From: a virus
Lineage: Duplodnaviria; Heunggongvirae; Uroviricota; Caudoviricetes
DNA: 41,432 nucleotides
Reading direction: 5' to 3' (one strand)
Virus record (IMG/VR): IMGVR_UViG_2563366824_000008
Shown here one piece after another: positions 3,515 to 35,033 of the stretch. The position numbers and the translations under genes are program-made. The notes under the pieces were generated by a model. The model saw nothing but the letters and a program-made list of their open reading frames with translations, did not search any database and was not told where the DNA came from. The stretch's first letter is position 1. Every line of letters begins with the position of its first letter.

Positions 3515-6415
3515 TTAATTAGTTATTTTTCCTTCCAATTCTTCAATCCTCTTTATAATATTTTTCTGACGTATACCTAATGCAGCAATCATTAGATACT
3601 GTAATTCATCATTTCTGAATGCATAGCGTTCTCCTGCTTCATGCGTAATAGTTATAGCCTCACGAACAAGGTTACCTTCATCATCATAAACAGCAGGATC
3701 TGTATCTGCATATGCATCCCATCTGTCATAGCAGATCGCTCCGTATTTAAATGGATCAAGTCCATTCTCTCTGAATATTTCCATTGCCCGTTGCACCGTA
3801 AGTCCGGCATGAAGTCTGGCATCAGCTCCCTTATTTTTTACACTATCAAGCCATTGATAAAAACCAATTTCATCAACAAGAGCTAACCCAACAGCCTGCT
3901 CTTTATCGGAAAGAGTTCTGACTTCCGTTTTCTCTGTTGCATCAGATGTATTTATAGTTGCAGTCCCTGCGTAGACCTGAGAAAAGCGGTTAACGGACCT
4001 TCCAAGTGATACCTGGTTATCAGTTGTTGGCCTTAATGTCGTCGTCGCCCATGTCGATGTAGTATCTTTAGTCGCAGAAAATACTGTTACATTCCCCTGC
4101 TTAAGTCTGACGACACCTCCATCTGTAGAGGCAAGTATCAACTCACCAGCCGCAGATGGACAATCAGCAGCATGGATATCAATATAAGCACCACCTGCAG
4201 TATTCCCATCTTTAGAACGGAACTGCATACCTCGAAAGTTTGAGTCGAATACTGCTTTCGTACTTACCCATGAATTATTGTCATGTCCGTAATCTGTATC
4301 AAACAGGTTAAGGTTATTTCCATAATTCAACTCGAGGGATTTGGTATACTCTCCAATGGCTTCGTCAAATATCGCAATAGTAAATGAACCGTGCTCACGG
4401 TTAAAGGCGATATCAGTTCCAGCATAATATTGATGCGCGGTTCCGGTATACGGATCGGATTCTGCGCCATGCACTGGATGGTTGCCAAGAATATCAGACA
4501 GGTTTGCTACTCCAAACAGATGCTTATTTCTGCGAGTATAATCGCCTGATTTATATGTTGCACCTGAATCCCATTCACCATTTGTCGCTGCAAGCGATGT
4601 TTTTAACCAATAAGACCTGTTTGTCGGAAGATTTCCCTTGTTATCACCAGTAACAGTACTTACCCAATTTTTGCCACGATGACTTACAACATCCCCTGCG
4701 CTTTTCCATACATCCATAGCACCACAGACAAGTTCATCACCTCTTATTGCCAGCCCTTCAGGCTCAAAGCTAACCGGAACTCCGATTTTAGAGTCAGAAC
4801 CATTTAACTGAGTCTCTGTATAAAGTGATGCGGCAAGTGATACAGGAAACGAACGTATTAGCGTACCACCCATATCATAAATCTGGACTGTCCTTACGCA
4901 TCTTGCAGGAACGCCACCCCAAATTGTGTAAATATATCTGCTATCTGATGTAATACCCTGAAGTGTTGCACCATACTGACCTTTACCACGAACAAGTGGA
5001 ACAGGACCATTAATCGGTCTAACTTTCATTGGGCTAGAAGAAGATTCCACTTCTTTGCGATCATATACATATAAAAATCGGCCAGTCCCAGTGTTTGATG
5101 TCGCAATTAATATGACATATCGCCCATCATTAGATACACAAATACTTGCCCGCTGCGCAAGGTTAATCAGATTATTATCACCAGGCTCACCAAATACTCG
5201 GTAATGAGTTATATCTTCAGCAGATGTTGATGCCCCTTTCCATTTTGTCTTTGAATACCCCTTCCCTCCTAGAGAGGAACCAGTCTCAGCAATTGTTGTT
5301 GTAAACAGATATAGTTCACCGTTCTCTATTGTGGCAGAAAGATCTGACCCGTGACCAAGAGGCAATGGCTCTGTAAATGTCACAACAGAAAGAGTTGAAC
5401 CATCGCTTGTATAGTGCCACTCACTGATCCTTGTGAGGGTGTCCGTTCCCCAGTTAGAACCTCCAACCTGTTGAGTGATAAAAACCTTCTCAATACCTTC
5501 ATGCCTTACACAAGCTATTCCCTGCAATGCGTTTTGTGCATTCGCATATATAGTTGGCGCATTGATATCATCACCAAAATTCAGGGTCGCAAGTTTTCTT
5601 TGTCCAATGGAGAAACTTTGCATCGGCGGATTAACGGAAATGCGAACACCATTACTGATTAGAACACCATCACCGGAGAAGCGTGAAATATCTATTTTCG
5701 ATGCATCAACTATATATTCCCCTGCAGGAACATGAACAATTTTAGAGTTTAACTGTGCATTTATAAAAGCATTTGTATCATCATTAATTAAGTCTGCTTT
5801 TGCCCCAAAATCCTTTACGCTATAAACGTCACGCATCTTATCCTGGAACGTTCGGTATACTGCTCCAGAACCATACTGAATAAACCATCCGAAACCACCG
5901 ACAACACCAGCAATTGCAGCATCCACATACTTACGCATTGAGCGATTATTTACAGCATCCTGCTCAAATGATGGATCTGCAAGGTTAGAAATTTTGTTTT
6001 GCTTTGCATCGTAATATTTTGCAAGCAAAGATGGTTTCATCAATGCACGTCTGAACCACCCAAAACATTGCTGGATCAGCATCGTCAGGTAGTCAAAGGC
6101 ATCTTCATGCACTTCGGGGAAAAATTTTCCCTGATTGCGAAGGTCTGTCTCCTGCACTACATCAAGCACACGATCTATCGTAATTCGCCATCCAGCAGCA
6201 AGCGGCGACGGAAGAACCACAGAACCGCCACTATAAGTGCCCGCCCCAGTTACCGTATAACCGGTATCCAGAACCAATTCTGTTACGTTCCCGTTCAGGT
6301 CAGACACCTGAACAACCAGGTCTGATTTTTTGAAAATACGGAAGGTATACGGAAACGATGTCGTAACGCCGTTACCGGTGTATTCGTTGTGGTCAACTTC
6401 GGTTGAGACCGTCAT
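3515..6415 (-). CDS. tailspike/tail fiber with beta-helix depolymerase-like body and C-terminal intramolecular chaperone domain
   Basis: 966 aa; N-terminal virion-attachment region; VKDFGAKADLINDDTNAF pectate-lyase-like beta-helix start; C-terminal segment (TLSDKEQAVGLALVDEIGFYQW...) resembles the self-cleaving S74 chaperone of tailspikes. Confidence 0.8.
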   Translation of the reverse strand: MTVSTEVDHNEYTGNGVTTSFPYTFRIFKKSDLVVQVSDLNGNVTELVLDTGYTVTGAGTYSGGSVVLPSPLAAGWRITIDRVLDVVQETDLRNQGKFFPEVHEDAFDYLTMLIQQCFGWFRRALMKPSLLAKYYDAKQNKISNLADPSFEQDAVNNRSMRKYVDAAIAGVVGGFGWFIQYGSGAVYRTFQDKMRDVYSVKDFGAKADLINDDTNAFINAQLNSKIVHVPAGEYIVDASKIDISRFSGDGVLISNGVRISVNPPMQSFSIGQRKLATLNFGDDINAPTIYANAQNALQGIACVRHEGIEKVFITQQVGGSNWGTDTLTRISEWHYTSDGSTLSVVTFTEPLPLGHGSDLSATIENGELYLFTTTIAETGSSLGGKGYSKTKWKGASTSAEDITHYRVFGEPGDNNLINLAQRASICVSNDGRYVILIATSNTGTGRFLYVYDRKEVESSSSPMKVRPINGPVPLVRGKGQYGATLQGITSDSRYIYTIWGGVPARCVRTVQIYDMGGTLIRSFPVSLAASLYTETQLNGSDSKIGVPVSFEPEGLAIRGDELVCGAMDVWKSAGDVVSHRGKNWVSTVTGDNKGNLPTNRSYWLKTSLAATNGEWDSGATYKSGDYTRRNKHLFGVANLSDILGNHPVHGAESDPYTGTAHQYYAGTDIAFNREHGSFTIAIFDEAIGEYTKSLELNYGNNLNLFDTDYGHDNNSWVSTKAVFDSNFRGMQFRSKDGNTAGGAYIDIHAADCPSAAGELILASTDGGVVRLKQGNVTVFSATKDTTSTWATTTLRPTTDNQVSLGRSVNRFSQVYAGTATINTSDATEKTEVRTLSDKEQAVGLALVDEIGFYQWLDSVKNKGADARLHAGLTVQRAMEIFRENGLDPFKYGAICYDRWDAYADTDPAVYDDEGNLVREAITITHEAGERYAFRNDELQYLMIAALGIRQKNIIKRIEELEGKITN

Positions 6416-6519
6416 GTTAAATCTCCAGATAGTCGCAGCACCCGTTGCGCCGCATATCTGGTTATTCTATTACCTGAAAAACCACATATGGATAGAAAGA
6501 CTGTGAATACGAATAGATA

Positions 6520-6534
6520 TTACCTTTCGGGTAA
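6520..6534. promoter_or_regulatory. candidate repressor operator TTACCTTTCGGGTAA
   Basis: Perfect copy of the recurrent TTACCT-N4-GGTAA inverted repeat, 77 nt upstream of the 6611 start. Confidence 0.5.
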
Positions 6535-6571
6535 TTTGCAAAACGTGCTGGATAGCAAACAAATTATTTGC

Positions 6572-6591
6572 TACTGTATAAATATACAGTT
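6572..6591. promoter_or_regulatory. LexA (SOS) box overlapping a -10-like element
   Basis: TACTGTATAAATATACAGTT matches the CTGT-N8-ACAG LexA consensus with an AT-rich spacer; overlaps TGTATAAAT; 20 nt upstream of the ATG at 6611. Confidence 0.7.
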
Positions 6592-6610
6592 ATTGCATGG
6601 AGAAGATAAG

Positions 6611-6868
6611 ATGCAGCAGTATCACTATCCACTGGAAGACGGATTTACCGAAAGGATTCACACGCCGGGAGGCGTCAGGTCACTGGTGGAGGGATCGCAT
6701 TTGATGAAATTACTCCGGGATCTCGATAAGGATGGATTTAATGTCGATGGCCCACTTGCCGAACTGACTGCACTGATTAACTACGTCACCAGCTCACAGA
6801 TGTCTATGCGGGATCTGCAAACACATCTCGACTATTGTGCCGAACAATTACGAAAACAAACCAGATAA
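6611..6868 (+). CDS. small antirepressor-like protein, paralogous to the C-terminal domain of the adjacent Ant
   Basis: Start taken at the internal ATG 6611 (RBS GGAGAAG) of ORF 6488..6868; 85-aa product aligns by eye with the last ~70 aa of the 7184..7879 protein (shared positions include LM-LL, DG, AELT, RD-QTH-Y). Confidence 0.6.
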   Translation: MQQYHYPLEDGFTERIHTPGGVRSLVEGSHLMKLLRDLDKDGFNVDGPLAELTALINYVTSSQMSMRDLQTHLDYCAEQLRKQTR

Positions 6869-6899
6869 GATTTGAAATTACCAAGAGGAGTGCTTATAT

Positions 6900-6914
6900 T
6901 TACCTTTGCGGTAA
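6900..6914. promoter_or_regulatory. candidate repressor operator TTACCTTTGCGGTAA inside a 12-bp inverted repeat
   Basis: Perfect motif copy lying in the loop between CAAGAGGAGTGC (6883..6894) and GCACTCCTCTTG (6924..6935). Confidence 0.45.
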
Positions 6915-7006
6915 ATTTACATCGCACTCCTCTTGTGCCATAGTAATCGGGCACTGGCAAAATCCAGTGCCGGGATTGGCGTCCCGGATTACTAAAAGGC
7001 GTATTC

Positions 7007-7026
7007 ACCGCGCAAGCGGTTTTTTT
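7007..7026 (+). terminator. rho-independent terminator (GNRA-loop hairpin plus T-run)
   Basis: ACCGC-GCAA-GCGGT followed by TTTTTT; about 140 nt after the 6611..6868 stop. Confidence 0.5.
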
Positions 7027-7183
7027 ATGCGTATAGCACGGCCACATTCGTATTATGGTGGGCTGTGTGGGGGCACCGAAAGGTGCGCCGGGTCCTTTTA
7101 GCCGGTTACGCCAACCCTGCACAGTTCACCACCAACCGATTGGCGTCGGTAGTGGTGATTAACCAGACTAAAAGGTAACCACT

Positions 7184-7879
7184 ATGACAGCTACAAAAAG
7201 CACGTCCATTTTTTCTTTCGAATCCCAAGCCGATATACGAGTAATCGTCATTAATGGTGAGCCATGGTTTATCGCTTCAGATGTTTGTCGGGCTATAGGC
7301 ATAGCAAATCATCGAGATGCTGTTAGAAAACTTGATGATGATGAGAAGGGCGTCGCTTCAACCGACACCCCTGGCGGTGAGCAAGAATCGATCATCATCT
7401 CCGAGTCAGGCCTCTACACACTGATCCTCCGCTGCCGCGACGCAGTGACACCAGGCACTATCCCCTACCGCTTTCGTAAATGGGTTACAGGTGAGGTTCT
7501 TCCTCAGATCCGCCGCACCGGAAGTTACATTAAAAACTCGCTCCCGCAGGAAGAACGCATAAAGATAGTTGCCGACCAGGTAGCCAACGCCACAGCATCA
7601 GCAGTGATGCAGGCAATGAAGATAGAGAACAAAACCTACAGTGCCCCACTGAAGCCCGGCTACCGCAGCCTGATTCACTCGCCGTCGGGTGTTCTCGGCC
7701 TGACGGAGAACTCACTGCTGATGAATCTGCTGAACCAGTTGCAGGACGACGGGCACGACGTATCGGGCGCGGCGGCGGAGCTGACCACCATGTTCTGCTA
7801 CATCGTCGGTGTGAGCAAATGCCTGCGTGATATCCAGACCCACGCGGAGTACATCAACGACAAAGCAGGGTTCTTCTGA
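7184..7879 (+). CDS. ant: antirepressor with BRO-N (KilA-N-like) N-terminal domain
   Basis: 231 aa; N-terminal region (VIVINGEPWFIASDVCRAIG...) matches the BRO-N/antirepressor signature as remembered; RBS AAAAGGTAA; C-terminal domain paralogous to the 6611 product. Confidence 0.75.
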   Translation: MTATKSTSIFSFESQADIRVIVINGEPWFIASDVCRAIGIANHRDAVRKLDDDEKGVASTDTPGGEQESIIISESGLYTLILRCRDAVTPGTIPYRFRKWVTGEVLPQIRRTGSYIKNSLPQEERIKIVADQVANATASAVMQAMKIENKTYSAPLKPGYRSLIHSPSGVLGLTENSLLMNLLNQLQDDGHDVSGAAAELTTMFCYIVGVSKCLRDIQTHAEYINDKAGFF

Positions 7880-7949
7880 CGGCGGCGGCACAGGGATGTG
7901 CCTTTAAATAATTCTGTACGATTGCAGACTGTGGGTGAATAGCGTACTA

Positions 7950-7964
7950 TTACCTCAAGGGTAA
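7950..7964. promoter_or_regulatory. candidate repressor operator TTACCTCAAGGGTAA
   Basis: Perfect motif copy 60 nt upstream of the 8025 start. Confidence 0.45.
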
Positions 7965-8024
7965 ACGGATTGGTTTCATTTTTATTAATCCGTGTAATGA
8001 ACTTATGAGATATGAGGTAATGTC

Positions 8025-8204
8025 ATGCGAAACGAAAAATTGCAGATGCGTAGAGCGCAAGCTGCCGCAAGACGTTCTTTCAATGGAAGCGTAGAGTACG
8101 TAAAAGTTACTATGACAAAAGATCACGCAAGTCGCGTATCCCGCGCTTTCTTTGATTCTCGTAACAATAAGGAAAATTATGAGTTCGTCTGCGTCGCAGA
8201 ATGA
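8025..8204 (+). CDS. small basic protein (candidate antitoxin), not in the ORF track
   Basis: 59-aa ORF translated by hand; RBS GAGGT 6 nt upstream of the ATG; overlaps the next gene by 26 nt in another frame. Confidence 0.4.
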   Translation: MRNEKLQMRRAQAAARRSFNGSVEYVKVTMTKDHASRVSRAFFDSRNNKENYEFVCVAE

Positions 8205-8724
8205 TAAAAATCAAATTGTCAGATATAAGGGTCGAGTATTGCATACGCAAAATTTCTCGGCCCTTTGTGCATCTGATCTTGAGCTGAAGAAAGTATCTGA
8301 TGCCTTTGCCCAGTATTGGAAAACGGGATACCATCCATCTCTTGGTAAAGATGCTGCATTTGCTCGTCCGACAGAAATGCTTAAACTAAATGTCAGGCAT
8401 ACTCATGTCGATAACCAAGACTATATTCCAGAAGATAGTGATAAAAAACACACTGGTAAAAAATCATCTTGGGATGCATGGAAAAATATAGCGTCTGTAC
8501 AAGTAAAATGCATACCAACAAGTGATTGCTTTTTAGTTTATTCGGTAAATCACAATCGTGATGCGCTGGTTATGTTTTTTGTTGACGCAGATGCTCACAA
8601 CATAACTGAGCAAGAAGAGTTTAAAGAGGAAGCAATCACTATCAGTTATCAATTCTTTGAGAAAACAAAAACAGAACCAATGCCTTTAGAAGAAGATCTT
8701 TTTTCTGATAAATGGAAGGAATAG
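8179..8724 (+). CDS. candidate toxin, possibly YafO-like
   Basis: Start taken at ATG 8179 (RBS AAGGAAAA) within ORF 8152..8724; 181 aa; segments DAF-QYWKTG..P.LGKDAAF, HTHVD and CFLVYS resemble my recollection of the YafO ribosome-dependent mRNA interferase family; not verified. Confidence 0.4.
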   Translation: MSSSASQNDKNQIVRYKGRVLHTQNFSALCASDLELKKVSDAFAQYWKTGYHPSLGKDAAFARPTEMLKLNVRHTHVDNQDYIPEDSDKKHTGKKSSWDAWKNIASVQVKCIPTSDCFLVYSVNHNRDALVMFFVDADAHNITEQEEFKEEAITISYQFFEKTKTEPMPLEEDLFSDKWKE

Positions 8725-25847: not shown

Positions 25848-25924
25848 GTGGCATTAGCTCAGTTGGACAGAGCAACCGCCTTCTAAGCGGTTGGTCGCAG
25901 GTTCGAATCCTGCATGCCACGCCA
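25848..25924 (+). tRNA. tRNA-Arg, anticodon UCU (argU-like)
   Basis: 77-nt cloverleaf folded by hand: acceptor GTGGCAT/ATGCCAC, D arm GCTC/GAGC, anticodon stem ACCGC/GCGGT with loop CTTCTAA, T arm GCAGG-TTCGAAT-CCTGC, discriminator G, encoded CCA. Confidence 0.9.
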
Positions 25925-34448: not shown

Positions 34449-35033
34449 ATGAAAAGTATCCAGGACGTCCGCAGGCAAAATCTCAACGACTTGATCGACC
34501 GTGAATTCAATGGTGTTCAGACGCGGATGGCAGAAAAACTTGGAACTCAGGCAAATCTGGTAAACCGCTGGGCTCTTGGCAAGAAGGTTATCGGCGACCA
34601 GGTTGCGCGAAAAATTGAAGCTGCCGCCAATAAACCCCGTAACTGGCTTGATATCGATCGCTCGCTTTCTCAGGAAGGTTTTCAGCCTGTCGGCCCAAGC
34701 GACATTGGTCAGCTGGCGGCTCACAACCTGGAACGCTGGATGAGCGAAAGCCGCGACCTTTCAACACAGGGAAAACTTCACCGCGCATCCGGCGTCGCCC
34801 AGGTGACAATCAGCCGCCTGTTAAACAATGAGGTCAGCGTTTCCATTTCCACCCTGGAGAATGTTGCATCCGCATTCGGGCGTCACGGCTATGAATTACT
34901 GATTCACCCGCACGACCCTGCGACTATCAACTATGACCGCTCGCGCTACGCATTGTTACCCGAAACAGAGAAGGCAAAGATCGAAAGTTACATTGAATTT
35001 GTCATCAGCCAGAACGAAAAAAACAAACAATAA
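34449..35033 (+). CDS. prophage repressor candidate with two HTH domains and no autocleavage domain
   Basis: 194 aa; two XRE-like HTH segments (QTRMAEKLGTQANLVNRW and HRASGVAQVTISRLLNN); no LexA-like Ala-Gly / Ser-Lys cleavage module seen; followed by its own terminator. Confidence 0.6.
   Translation: MKSIQDVRRQNLNDLIDREFNGVQTRMAEKLGTQANLVNRWALGKKVIGDQVARKIEAAANKPRNWLDIDRSLSQEGFQPVGPSDIGQLAAHNLERWMSESRDLSTQGKLHRASGVAQVTISRLLNNEVSVSISTLENVASAFGRHGYELLIHPHDPATINYDRSRYALLPETEKAKIESYIEFVISQNEKNKQ

Follow-up and report, generated by a model that had tools for sequence, protein, structure and literature searches.

The window, as we call the whole stretch of 41,432 nucleotides analysed here, is a phiV10/TL-2011b-like Uetakevirus prophage. 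Between a small gene (6611-6868, 85 aa) and the antirepressor gene ant, it carries a spacer of 315 nt (6869-7183), a place where the GenBank and RefSeq records of these phages mark only a terminator and the Bro-N gene, RNAs being absent. The regulated gene is the following.

7184-7879, plus strand: ant, encoding a Bro-N-type antirepressor of 231 aa (Pfam Bro-N, E = 2.4e-21; PHROG anti-repressor Ant, E = 2.8e-61)

The column of the ant ATG is at least 90% conserved in alignment A2, and overexpression of the ant orthologue in vB_EcoP_ZX5 promoted lytic growth (PMC9782041). The sequence-only reading of this DNA had described the flanking genes as two antirepressors. This holds for the downstream one as a Bro-N antirepressor, whereas the upstream gene shows homology only to the C-terminal domain of the downstream Ant (43% identity). 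A LexA box is found 5′ of this small upstream antirepressor gene.

Two Rfam families, isrK and C4, match side by side on the plus strand directly 5′ of ant, both above their gathering scores. Folded as a 265-nt RNA (6936-7200), the region reaches -110.8 kcal/mol against -83.5 ± 4.6 kcal/mol for dinucleotide shuffles (z = -5.89), and 0 of 200 shuffles were as good. The folding and Rfam checks proposed together with the idea that a stable non-coding RNA lies in this interval thus both gave positive answers. For comparison, 120 viral contigs yielded 102 C4 loci and 58 distinct combinations of recognition elements; these loci are not phylogenetically independent, and the pattern used to scan the collection fixed GCCGG, CCGGT and CCAACCC, so that the second C4 hairpin and part of the a′ element could not vary. 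The leader part of the spacer comprises the following features.

6951-7026, plus strand: IsrK-like leader or short sRNA (RF01394 in Rfam; 77.4 bits, gathering score 50, E = 5e-15, model positions 1-77)
6951-6957 / 6964-6970, plus strand: leader hairpin 1, with compensatory changes at 7 of 7 pairs
6971-6975 / 6982-6986, plus strand: leader hairpin 2, its stem 94% paired
6976-6982, plus strand: a1, putative decoy copy of a2, UUGGCGU in the loop of hairpin 2, complementary to C4 a′
6992-6999, plus strand: b1, putative decoy copy of b2, CUAAAAGG in the single-stranded linker, complementary to the C4 b′ loop
7007-7026, plus strand: intrinsic terminator ACCGC-GCAA-GCGGT followed by seven U, found by a terminator scan and part of the isrK model

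Three hairpins picked out earlier from the letters are recovered here, namely the 8-bp hairpin GGCACTGG / CCAGTGCC (6950-6971), the CCGGGA / TCCCGG hairpin (6970-6987) and the GNRA-loop terminator with its T-run, which the terminator scan also detects. Because the stretch 6951-7026 matches the IsrK family, a short transcript ending at 7026, as had been suggested, is expected. The short IsrK-like RNA would then have its 3′ end at this terminator, C4 and the ant mRNA presumably requiring read-through. Among the 58 relatives, 54 carry a T-run between b1 and C4, and it is nearly invariant in alignment A2; b1 is situated about 65 nt 5′ of C4 in most of them. The c4-a1b1 family (RF03163) reaches 45.1 bits at 6938-6990, 1.6 bits under its gathering score of 46.7.

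Downstream of the terminator lies the C4 gene, whose elements are labelled as in P1 (b′ for the loop, a′ for the junction).

7051-7136, plus strand: C4 antisense RNA gene (RF01695 in Rfam; 77.7 bits, gathering score 45, full-length match to model positions 1-87, E = 1e-13)
7057-7133, plus strand: predicted mature C4 of 77 nt, with ends taken from the P1 annotation
7056-7072 / 7115-7131, plus strand: long acceptor-like stem, 95% paired, 10 pairs changed on both sides
7073-7086, plus strand: GAAA hairpin GCACC-GAAA-GGTGC, 5 of 5 pairs compensated
7087-7106, plus strand: second C4 hairpin, fixed by the search pattern and hence uninformative for covariation
7094-7101, plus strand: b′ recognition element CCUUUUAG, loop of the second hairpin, perfect complement of 6992-6999 and 7168-7175
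7108-7114, plus strand: a′ recognition element of the single-stranded junction, ACGCCAA, complement of 6976-6982 and 7140-7146

With the same model, the C4 of P1 itself scores 68.8 bits. The predicted 77-nt piece would start at a G preceded by AU and end in ACC, as annotated in P1, and its minimum free energy structure is the canonical tRNA-like fold (-45.1 kcal/mol). Compensatory changes affect 16 of the 23 consensus pairs of C4, and the GCACC-GAAA-GGTGC hairpin noticed at the outset is part of this fold.

Several open reading frames lie over these hairpins. It is very improbable that they encode real small proteins, whether from an 88-aa ORF (6835-7101, plus strand), a 96-aa ORF (6832-7122, minus strand) or ORFs of 35-37 aa. 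They exist mechanically, and the 35-aa ORF matches PHROG 20442 (E = 2.4e-8), but they overlap two RNA families and a terminator, the annotators of phiV10, of TL-2011b and of RefSeq called no genes in the spacer, and the PHROG match is most simply explained by ORF calls made across C4 genes. The earlier reading had remarked that the two ORFs listed here overlap the hairpins and have no RBS; among the 58 relatives, coding conservation of such ORFs is not consistent.

The sites complementary to C4 at ant, together with an alternative structure, are located as follows.

7136-7149, plus strand: a2 hairpin CCGA-UUGGCG-UCGG, with a2 (7140-7146) in the loop, 7 nt past the predicted C4 3′ end
7168-7175, plus strand: b2 target CUAAAAGG, overlapping the ant Shine-Dalgarno AAGG (7172-7175), 8 nt before the ATG
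7126-7158, plus strand: alternative helix between the C4 3′ arm (7126-7132) and a copy of the 5′ arm further downstream (7152-7158)

The nested hairpin noticed before ant (7126-7159) is present in the sequence. The sequence CTAAAAGG occurs just twice in the 41 kb window, at 6992-6999 and 7168-7175. The spatial arrangement is maintained among relatives: a2 lies 5-12 nt 3′ of C4 in nearly all of them, a b2 site complementary to the loop is found 33-43 nt 3′ of C4, and in relatives with a cleanly called start codon b2 ends 1-15 nt before the conserved ATG.

In the window sequence taken alone, duplexes between C4 and its sites are only moderately better than those formed with shuffled targets (p = 0.008 to 0.11), and the case therefore rests on the comparison of the family. 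In the 58 distinct relatives, covariation links the recognition elements of C4 to both target pairs, and compensatory changes are seen in the helices. The a1:a′ helix is 97.6% paired in 44 relatives, all variable columns co-varying; a′:a2 is 97.3% paired with compensatory changes at every variable column, and the inner stem of the a2 hairpin also co-varies. The b′ loop sequences vary widely, from CCUUUUAG in the window to CCUUUGUAG in the L014 type, and track their targets. Counted by columns, b1:b′ and b′:b2 reach 53-61% of paired cells (61% for b′:b2), a weak figure since MAFFT could not align this length-variable loop. We therefore relied on a permutation test of duplexes, so that the covariation of b′:b2 comes from the alignment-free test only. 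In this test, duplexes of the b′ loop with the downstream region have a native mean of -12.5 kcal/mol against -7.1 kcal/mol across loci (p = 4e-30), and those with the upstream region -11.4 against -8.1 kcal/mol (p = 1e-19); for the three comparisons of own-locus with other-locus pairing besides loop-to-downstream, p ranges from 1e-18 to 1e-19. Family matches, architecture, complementarities and their covariation are the points shown by this analysis. The covariance check proposed earlier found the paired positions conserved with compensatory changes, and together with the C4 and isrK matches and the complementary sites this argues that ant is probably controlled at the RNA level, as had been supposed.

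These data also bear on two other ways of silencing ant. One, a protein-independent attenuator, holds that the terminator 7007-7026 alone sets ant expression, the remaining hairpins merely stabilising the RNA. The leader does contain a canonical intrinsic terminator, and partial read-through is documented for IsrK, but this would account neither for the duplication of the sites and the way they co-vary with the loop and junction of C4 nor for the overlap with the Shine-Dalgarno. We consider such a simple attenuator very improbable and regard termination as one layer of the module, not the whole.

The other is the model of the earlier reading. In P22-like phages, ant is controlled by sar, a small RNA whose template is the strand opposite to the ant leader. 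A comparable cis-antisense RNA blocking ant translation is hardly credible here: although the ant leader is highly structured, all its structured elements match plus-strand families, and the covariation fits pairing of C4 with targets on the same strand. A consensus scan of 6869-7183 revealed no promoter-like site on the minus strand, and there was no sar-type Rfam match even at E ≤ 10. The P22 analogy drawn initially is hence replaced by a candidate trans-acting regulator of the C4 type, encoded upstream on the same strand. What remains comparable is a small RNA preventing ant translation in a temperate podovirus, with an opposite-strand origin in the immI sar system, unlike the window C4.

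Upstream of the leader, the following sites were identified.

6872-6900, plus strand: predicted distal sigma-70-like promoter, TTGAAA, 17-nt spacer, TATATT (10/12 in a consensus scan)
6916-6944, plus strand: proximal promoter-like site, TTTACA, 17-nt spacer, TG-CATAGT, predicted start at about 6951
6900-6914, no strand assigned: putative repressor operator TTACCTTTGCGGTAA, between both promoter-like sites
6882-6893 / 6924-6935, no strand assigned: 12-bp perfect inverted repeat CAAGAGGAGTGC / GCACTCCTCTTG, flanking the operator TTACCTTTGCGGTAA

The -10 hexamer of the distal site abuts the operator, and the start predicted for the proximal site coincides with the 5′ end of the IsrK match. The two promoter-like sites, which are consensus matches only, thus bracket an over-represented palindrome: the motif TTACC-N5-GGTAA, with at most one mismatch, has 13 copies in the window where 0.45 would be expected, and the HTH repressor gene (34449-35033) is flanked by pairs of copies. 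The operator copy at 6900-6914 is conserved among relatives, and binding of the repressor to it is predicted by homology.

The 12-bp inverted repeat announced around the operator copy is indeed present (6882-6935), one base to the left of the 6883 first given, but it does not belong to the structured RNA. It lies 5′ of the inferred start at about 6951 and is missing from close relatives that keep the RNAs: in TL-2011b-type relatives its left arm has disappeared and the right arm is kept along with operator and RNAs, and in phiV10 a perfect 41-nt palindrome with the operator at its centre takes its place. An RNA hairpin formed by this repeat could therefore be ruled out, and it is to be seen as promoter and operator sequence acting at the DNA level, within promoter-spacer DNA.

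These features echo the immI operon c4 - icd - ant1/ant2 found in phages P1 and P7 (Citron & Schuster 1990, via PMC8198154), in which full repression of ant needs C4 (PMC8198154). According to the NC_005856 annotation and PMC8198154, P1 presents on one strand the order seen here, where operator and promoters are predicted ones: operator, tandem promoters, a1, b1, the 77-nt tRNA-like C4, a2 directly 3′ and b2 at the RBS, and its leader likewise contains two hairpins and a terminator-like hairpin. By position relative to the annotated P1 record, the site 6872-6900 would be the counterpart of P2c4/P51a and the operator copy that of Oc4/Op51; the site 6916-6944 would correspond to P1c4/P51b, and in P1, too, about 7 nt separate the -10 of P1c4 from the first leader hairpin. 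The P1 repressor has many dispersed operators, as does by prediction that of the window, with an asymmetric 17-bp C1 site in P1 and the TTACC-N5-GGTAA palindrome in the window. The recognition sequences are different as well (UUGACAG and GUUAGUG in P1, UUGGCGU and CUAAAAGG in the window), and the P1 leader scores just 35 bits with the isrK model, compared to 77 bits here. P1 is a plasmid prophage whereas the window is an integrated podovirus, and the window Ant, a Bro-N protein of 231 aa, differs from that of P1. Finally, P1 has icd between b2 and ant, to which it is translationally coupled, whereas the window is devoid of icd and its b2 lies on the Shine-Dalgarno of ant itself, not on one belonging to a coupled ORF further upstream. 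As the ant ATG (7184) is just 8 nt past b2, leaving no room for icd, the operon is not an orthologue of that of P1, though it follows the same RNA logic.

Taken together, the 315-nt spacer appears to be an immunity module of the phage P1 type, made of a repressor-controlled promoter, an IsrK-like small RNA, a C4 antisense RNA and the ant RBS. More precisely, we propose, with a probability of roughly 85%, that it serves as the control region for an antirepressor operon of the immI type, in which C4 acts on the ant RBS and the IsrK-like RNA serves as its decoy. Processing, translational block, decoy role and repressor binding would follow from homology. Transcription would proceed from the two tandem promoters bracketing the prophage-repressor operator, starting at about 6951 for the proximal one. 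The first 76 nt would give the IsrK-like RNA, composed of two hairpins, a linker and the terminator 7007-7026 and bearing the copies a1 and b1 of the C4 sites. Read-through of the terminator would produce transcripts holding C4 (about 7057-7133), which, being tRNA-like, is presumably excised by RNase P and trimmed at its 3′ end as in P1. Mature C4 would then pair through a′ (ACGCCAA) and b′ (CCUUUUAG) with a2 (7140-7146) and b2 (7168-7175) on the ant mRNA. Since b2 covers the Shine-Dalgarno, ribosome binding would be blocked and Ant not made. In P1, C4 pairing also causes premature termination of transcription. Lysogeny would in this way be shielded from leaky ant expression, with an immunity specific to the a′/b′ sequence.

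The short IsrK-like RNA, which carries both a1 and b1 and has the more extensive complementarity to C4, is most likely a target mimic that ties up C4 and turns ant on, like an excess of IsrK in Gifsy-1. The duplex that C4 could form with IsrK amounts to -53.3 kcal/mol, the one with the ant leader to -41.0 kcal/mol. Cofolding of C4 with either of them at minimum free energy gave no net energy gain, as expected from kissing interactions falling outside the model.

The Gifsy-1 locus isrK - orf45 (STnc1160) - anrP shares with the window the leader family, a terminator that gives a short and a read-through RNA in Gifsy-1 and is predicted to do so here, a C4-shaped segment and then an antirepressor gene. 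There, the IsrK promoter drives transcription of anrP without translation, and IsrK provided in trans raises translation 139-fold (PMC4825925). The short and read-through isoforms of IsrK, its Hfq binding and the trans-activation of the antirepressor are documented for Gifsy-1 only. In that system, a processed RNA of about 80 nt, STnc1160, was detected 3′ of IsrK, and translation is de-repressed by G28A and G31A, which lie in the a1 loop, as well as by C159U and C162U in a′ (PMC4825925). The Gifsy-1 switch has been read as alternative cis structures combined with translation and coupling of orf45, and we found no mention of C4 (Hershko-Shalev et al. 2016, PMC4825925). The AnrP to AntQ cascade of Gifsy-1 has no evident counterpart in the window, but both have a small ORF that starts at an AUG and overlaps the C4 segment.

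7055-7162, plus strand: ORF of 35 codons at the position equivalent to orf45, AUG within the 5′ end of C4, stop codon 21 nt short of ant; poorly conserved and of doubtful coding capacity

By analogy, an alternative folding could silence the mRNA in the window, the short IsrK activating this leader ORF and coupling opening the ant start, with the C4 segment being mainly a part of the mRNA. Translation of orf45 and coupling were indeed demonstrated experimentally in Gifsy-1 (PMC4825925), where a1-loop mutations in cis also raised basal expression, which a pure decoy model would not predict. In favour of this possibility, the AUG of the 7055 ORF is kept in 51 of 58 relatives, and a conserved alternative helix joins the C4 3′ arm to the downstream sequence (88% paired in 44 relatives, with both partners changed at 6 of 7 pairs). 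However, no evident Shine-Dalgarno precedes 7055, and the frame is not conserved: it stops at 14-18 codons in 7 of the 58 relatives, runs into ant in many, and the peptides are unrelated, so that a conserved leader peptide was rejected. In the window, 7150-7156 can also pair with 7178-7184 across the ant start codon. As a conserved hairpin hiding this codon, the pairing was discarded for lack of significant covariation (native -7.4 against -6.9 kcal/mol across loci, p = 0.10). The covariation of a′/a2 and b′/b2 and the tRNA-like fold are, on the contrary, predictions of a trans-acting processed RNA, and a processed species of about 80 nt does exist in Salmonella. We therefore find a Gifsy-1-style cis switch rather unlikely as the principal mechanism. 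It is not mutually exclusive with the antisense action of C4 that we favour.

The alternative helix 7126-7158 can form only in the unprocessed read-through RNA. As the C4 5′ arm, its 3′ arm and the downstream repeat of the 5′ arm co-vary, the precursor may either release C4 or form a long hairpin displaying a2. We tentatively put forward that the read-through transcript could be a three-state RNA switch which, together with the IsrK sponge and the LexA-controlled small antirepressor, would constitute an RNA-only bistable circuit, although this extension seems at present speculative. If true, read-through of the terminator would set the ratio of repressor to anti-repressor RNA in this circuit, and the three-state switch would unify the literatures on P1 c4 and on Gifsy-1 IsrK, which do not cite each other.

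Other mobile elements employ related arrangements. In APSE phages of Hamiltonella (LR794146, PMC7313666), isrK, C4 and a Bro-N gene are annotated likewise, with putative antisense regions, and the sequence is 70-72% similar to that of the window over about 210 nt, host and phage type being different. In that record the names are swapped relative to P1, a′ standing for the loop and b′ for the junction. The CI RNA of P4, with seqA and seqC, is like the window C4 a processed small RNA with complementary sites on both sides, and was called a structural homologue by the authors of the IsrK study (PMC4825925). However, P4 CI terminates transcription of replication genes, whereas the window C4 is predicted to block the RBS of an antirepressor.

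The RNAs of the spacer are not new, both elements being already curated Rfam families, and no new concept is required, as this kind of regulation has been known since 1990. The module is thus a well-known type of phage switch, without prior annotation in the phiV10/TL-2011b group of phages. Of 5426 complete E. coli genomes, 941 contain matches to the interval at megablast level, mostly at lower identity or over part of its length and in other prophage types. The annotation of these phages can now be corrected, and spurious ORF families called over C4 genes become recognisable. For the biology of these phages, the proposed module would account for the silence of ant in phiV10/TL-2011b-type prophages and define the short sequences setting their immunity specificity.

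The spacer upstream of ant (6869-7183) had been described in the sequence-only reading as densely structured, and this observation is confirmed beyond chance: the RNA 6936-7200 has a predicted folding energy of -110.8 kcal/mol, whereas dinucleotide shuffles average -83.5 +/- 4.6 (z = -5.89). All six listed elements were found again on reading 6000-8200, the 12-bp perfect inverted repeat being present at 6882-6893 / 6924-6935, one base away from its first description. A stable non-coding RNA had also been considered possible, and the suggested Rfam scan indeed places isrK and C4 antisense RNA in the spacer, two of the three gathering-level matches of the whole window. The P22-type small antisense RNA proposed as a parallel found no support, nothing sar-like appearing in a permissive Rfam scan.

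Elements of the leader (window positions; strand where assigned)
6900-6914: candidate operator copy TTACCTTTGCGGTAA, flanked by the 12-bp inverted repeat arms
6916-6944: proximal promoter-like site, TTTACA, 17-nt spacer, TG-CATAGT, predicted start ~6951
6938-6990: c4-a1b1 (RF03163), permissive scan, 45.1 bits, slightly short of the gathering score of 46.7
6951-7026, +: isrK (RF01394), 77.4 bits, gathering score 50
6976-6982: a1, UUGGCGU, loop of leader hairpin 2
6992-6999: b1, CUAAAAGG
7051-7136, +: C4 antisense RNA (RF01695), 77.7 bits, gathering score 45
7094-7101: b', CCUUUUAG, loop of the second C4 hairpin
7108-7114: a', ACGCCAA, single-stranded junction of C4
7140-7146: a2, UUGGCGU, loop of a small hairpin
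7168-7175: b2, CUAAAAGG, overlapping the AAGG Shine-Dalgarno, 8 nt before the ant ATG (7184)

Given these matches, hairpins 6950-6971 and 6970-6987, both as described, correspond to hairpins 1 and 2 of IsrK, and the terminator at 7007-7026 (GCAA loop, seven T) is that of IsrK. The GAAA hairpin 7073-7086 is the first of those inside C4, and the nested hairpin 7126-7159 combines the a2 hairpin with the 3' arm of the long stem of C4. The inverted repeat is promoter/operator DNA. From the mature ends of P1 C4 (5' G after AU, 3' ACC), mature C4 would be 7057-7133, exactly 77 nt, a piece that takes the canonical C4 fold in predicted folding (-45.1 kcal/mol). CTAAAAGG has no copy beyond the b1 and b2 sites within the 41-kb window.

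Relatives were collected by scanning viral contigs for the invariant C4 core as a pattern (GCCGG, CCGGT and CCAACCC kept fixed), yielding 120 loci, related to one another, of which 102 have the long C4 stem; among these 102, loop and junction sequences occur in 58 distinct combinations. Matching partners are visible by eye, for the loop GTCCTTTGTAG with CTACAAAGG before the ATG and TTTCCGTATGCG with GCATACGGAGG, for the junction AGTTCCAAC with ATTGGAAC and CTACCAAC with TTGGTAG. The b' loop varies in length, which precludes column-by-column alignment; the elements of each locus pair much more strongly with their own flanks than with those of other loci.

Mean pairing energy, native against cross-locus (kcal/mol)
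b' to b2: -12.5 against -7.1, p = 4e-30
a' to a2: -9.9 against -7.4, p = 2e-19
b' to b1: -11.4 against -8.1, p = 1e-19
a' to a1: -9.9 against -8.0, p = 7e-18

Spacing is near-fixed, with a2 5-12 nt and b2 33-43 nt after C4, and a1 ~80 nt and b1 ~65 nt before it. Where the start codon is cleanly called, b2 ends 1-15 nt before the ATG, and a T-run separates b1 from C4 in 54/58 loci. Conservation of the paired positions in related phages, by which the structured region was to be judged, is borne out by the compensated helices of the alignment of the whole module (A2).

Pairing in A2 (n = 44)
a1:a': 97.6% of cells paired, all variable columns compensated
a':a2: 97.3%, all variable columns compensated
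Leader hairpin 1: 90.9%, 7/7 pairs compensated
Leader hairpin 2 stem: 94.1%, 3/5 pairs compensated, 2 invariant
C4 long stem: 95.1%, 10 pairs changed on both sides
First C4 hairpin: 92.6%, 5/5 pairs compensated

RNAalifold on the C4 segment alone gives 16/23 compensated pairs. The loop CAAAAU of leader hairpin 1 (6958-6963, A2 columns 21-26, within GCAAAAUC) is strongly conserved on a co-varying stem. In the viral contigs L046 (9709-9796, 10365-10452) and L084 (two matches), a second complete C4 module lies within a few hundred bases of the first and differs from it in loop and junction; these look like immunity modules in tandem, each with its own specificity.

This arrangement echoes that of P1 (NC_005856), whose order is Oc4 (Op51), P2c4 (P51a), P1c4 (P51b), a1, b1, C4, a2, b2, icd, ant1/ant2, with a 77-nt C4, a2 3 nt after it and b2 at the icd ribosome-binding site; Rfam matches to C4, c4-a1b1 and a sub-threshold isrK are arranged there as in the window. 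Unlike in P1, ant is targeted directly, with no icd. P1-type logic is the best-supported reading of ant control: read-through transcripts would provide C4, whose a' and b' would pair with a2 and b2 and block the ant ribosome-binding site, so that no Ant would be made to inactivate the prophage repressor. In P1, full ant repression needs C4 (PMC8198154).

The short IsrK-like RNA bears a1 and b1 and could form a longer, stronger duplex with C4 than the ant leader could (-53.3 vs -41.0 kcal/mol). In Gifsy-1, anrP is transcribed from the IsrK promoter and left untranslated, IsrK in trans activates translation 139-fold, and mutating IsrK G28 or G31, or downstream C159 or C162, de-represses it (PMC4825925). 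By our mapping, G28/G31 fall in a1 and C159/C162 in a'. The same study reports a processed RNA of ~80 nt, STnc1160, downstream of IsrK and makes no mention of C4 (PMC4825925). The most economical view is that IsrK is a C4 decoy. A model of alternative cis structures combined with orf45 translation was proposed for Gifsy-1 (PMC4825925), and we keep it as a live rival because an a1 mutation in cis raises basal expression there, which misfits a pure decoy. In the window, the positional equivalent of orf45 is a 35-aa ORF across C4 (7055-7162) that stops 21 nt before ant. Against this model, neither frame nor peptide is conserved in 58 relatives: the frame stops after 14-18 codons in 7 and in many others continues into ant, giving peptides unrelated to one another. 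A 2025 review also finds the nucleotides of orf45 conserved but not its amino acids (PMC12197685). Likewise, the hairpin predicted over the ant start codon (7150-56 / 7178-84) has no significant covariation in relatives (p = 0.10). The 35-aa ORF (codons at 7055-7159) matches PHROG 20442 (function unknown, E = 2.4e-8), which probably consists of spurious ORF calls over C4 genes. Another helix joins the C4 3' arm (7126-7132) to a repeat of the 5' arm further downstream (7152-7158), forming the outer part of the nested hairpin. Possible solely in unprocessed RNA, it is 88% paired in relatives, with 6/7 pairs changed on both sides, and has an equivalent in P1.

Two promoter-like sites lie one on each side of the operator; the start predicted for the proximal one falls where the isrK match begins, and P1c4 stands in the same relation to its own leader. 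The window contains 13 copies of the palindrome TTACC-N5-GGTAA, where 0.45 would be expected (2948, 6520, 6900, 7950, 25511, 28653, 28671, 31986, 32048, 34331, 34379, 35091, 35153), with pairs on both sides of the gene of an HTH protein (34449-35033), the candidate prophage repressor, that has no S24 peptidase domain. From this dispersal and these pairs, it is most likely the site of the prophage repressor. The C1 operators of P1 are similarly genome-dispersed, and this podovirus has a comparable network of candidate operators. The 12-bp inverted repeat is not conserved in relatives, TL-2011b-type loci keeping the right arm alone, within the proximal promoter spacer; it is a DNA-level feature. 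In phiV10 (L001), a 41-nt perfect palindrome, GGAGTGCTTATATTTACCGCAAAGGTAAATATAAGCACTCC, is centred on the operator ~150 nt upstream of C4, and the TTTACA -35 hexamer that the proximal promoter has in the window is absent. In TL-2011b-type relatives (L003 1991-3079; L014, L070, L087, L096), the left of the operator is replaced by ~1.1 kb in which a further operator copy, TTACCTTAAAGGTAA, is found, so that the IsrK promoter does not adjoin the small upstream antirepressor gene in these phages.

Of the two antirepressor genes said to border the spacer, the downstream one (7184-7879) encodes an antirepressor of the Bro-N type (Pfam E = 2.4e-21; PHROG anti-repressor Ant E = 2.8e-61), whereas the upstream 85-aa gene (6611-6868) has homology solely to the C-terminal domain of this Ant (43% identity). 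Overexpression of the orthologous antirepressor of vB_EcoP_ZX5 favoured lytic growth of that phage (PMC9782041). A LexA/SOS box close to consensus, TACTGTATAAATATACAGTT (6572-6591, 1 mismatch, 0.01 chance matches expected), lies ~20 nt upstream of the 85-aa gene. Since the candidate repressor has no S24 peptidase, SOS induction probably works via a small antirepressor under LexA control, along the lines of Gifsy phages or phage 186 Tum. Beyond ant (region 7950-8724), a 59-aa ORF (8025-8204, PHROG 6685) with a third operator copy in front of it (7950-7964) overlaps a 181-aa protein with a YafO-toxin domain (PF13957, 26.3 bits, cutoff 25); the two may be a repressor-controlled toxin-antitoxin-like pair. 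The genome also carries a tRNA-Arg gene (anticodon TCT, 25848-25924; Rfam 73.3 bits, also ARAGORN).

This kind of system has been known since 1990 and is Rfam-curated, and APSE phages already have isrK, C4 and Bro-N annotated together (PMC7313666). The window belongs to a Uetakevirus like phiV10 and TL-2011b, with 95-98% identity across this region; megablast finds matches in 941/5426 complete E. coli genomes, with at least 80% query coverage in 432. Yet the phiV10 and TL-2011b records mark here the terminator and Bro-N gene alone, and RefSeq E. coli genomes the Bro-N protein alone. What is new is modest: RNAs missing from the records of this phage group, direct targeting of ant without icd, and co-variation across the family, in which a' and b' each change together with their upstream and downstream sites. 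A tentative proposal, to which we give about one chance in four, is that the IsrK decoy and the triple-covarying arms form a switch made of RNA alone, set between a repressor RNA and an anti-repressor RNA; if true, it would connect the P1 and Gifsy-1 literatures.
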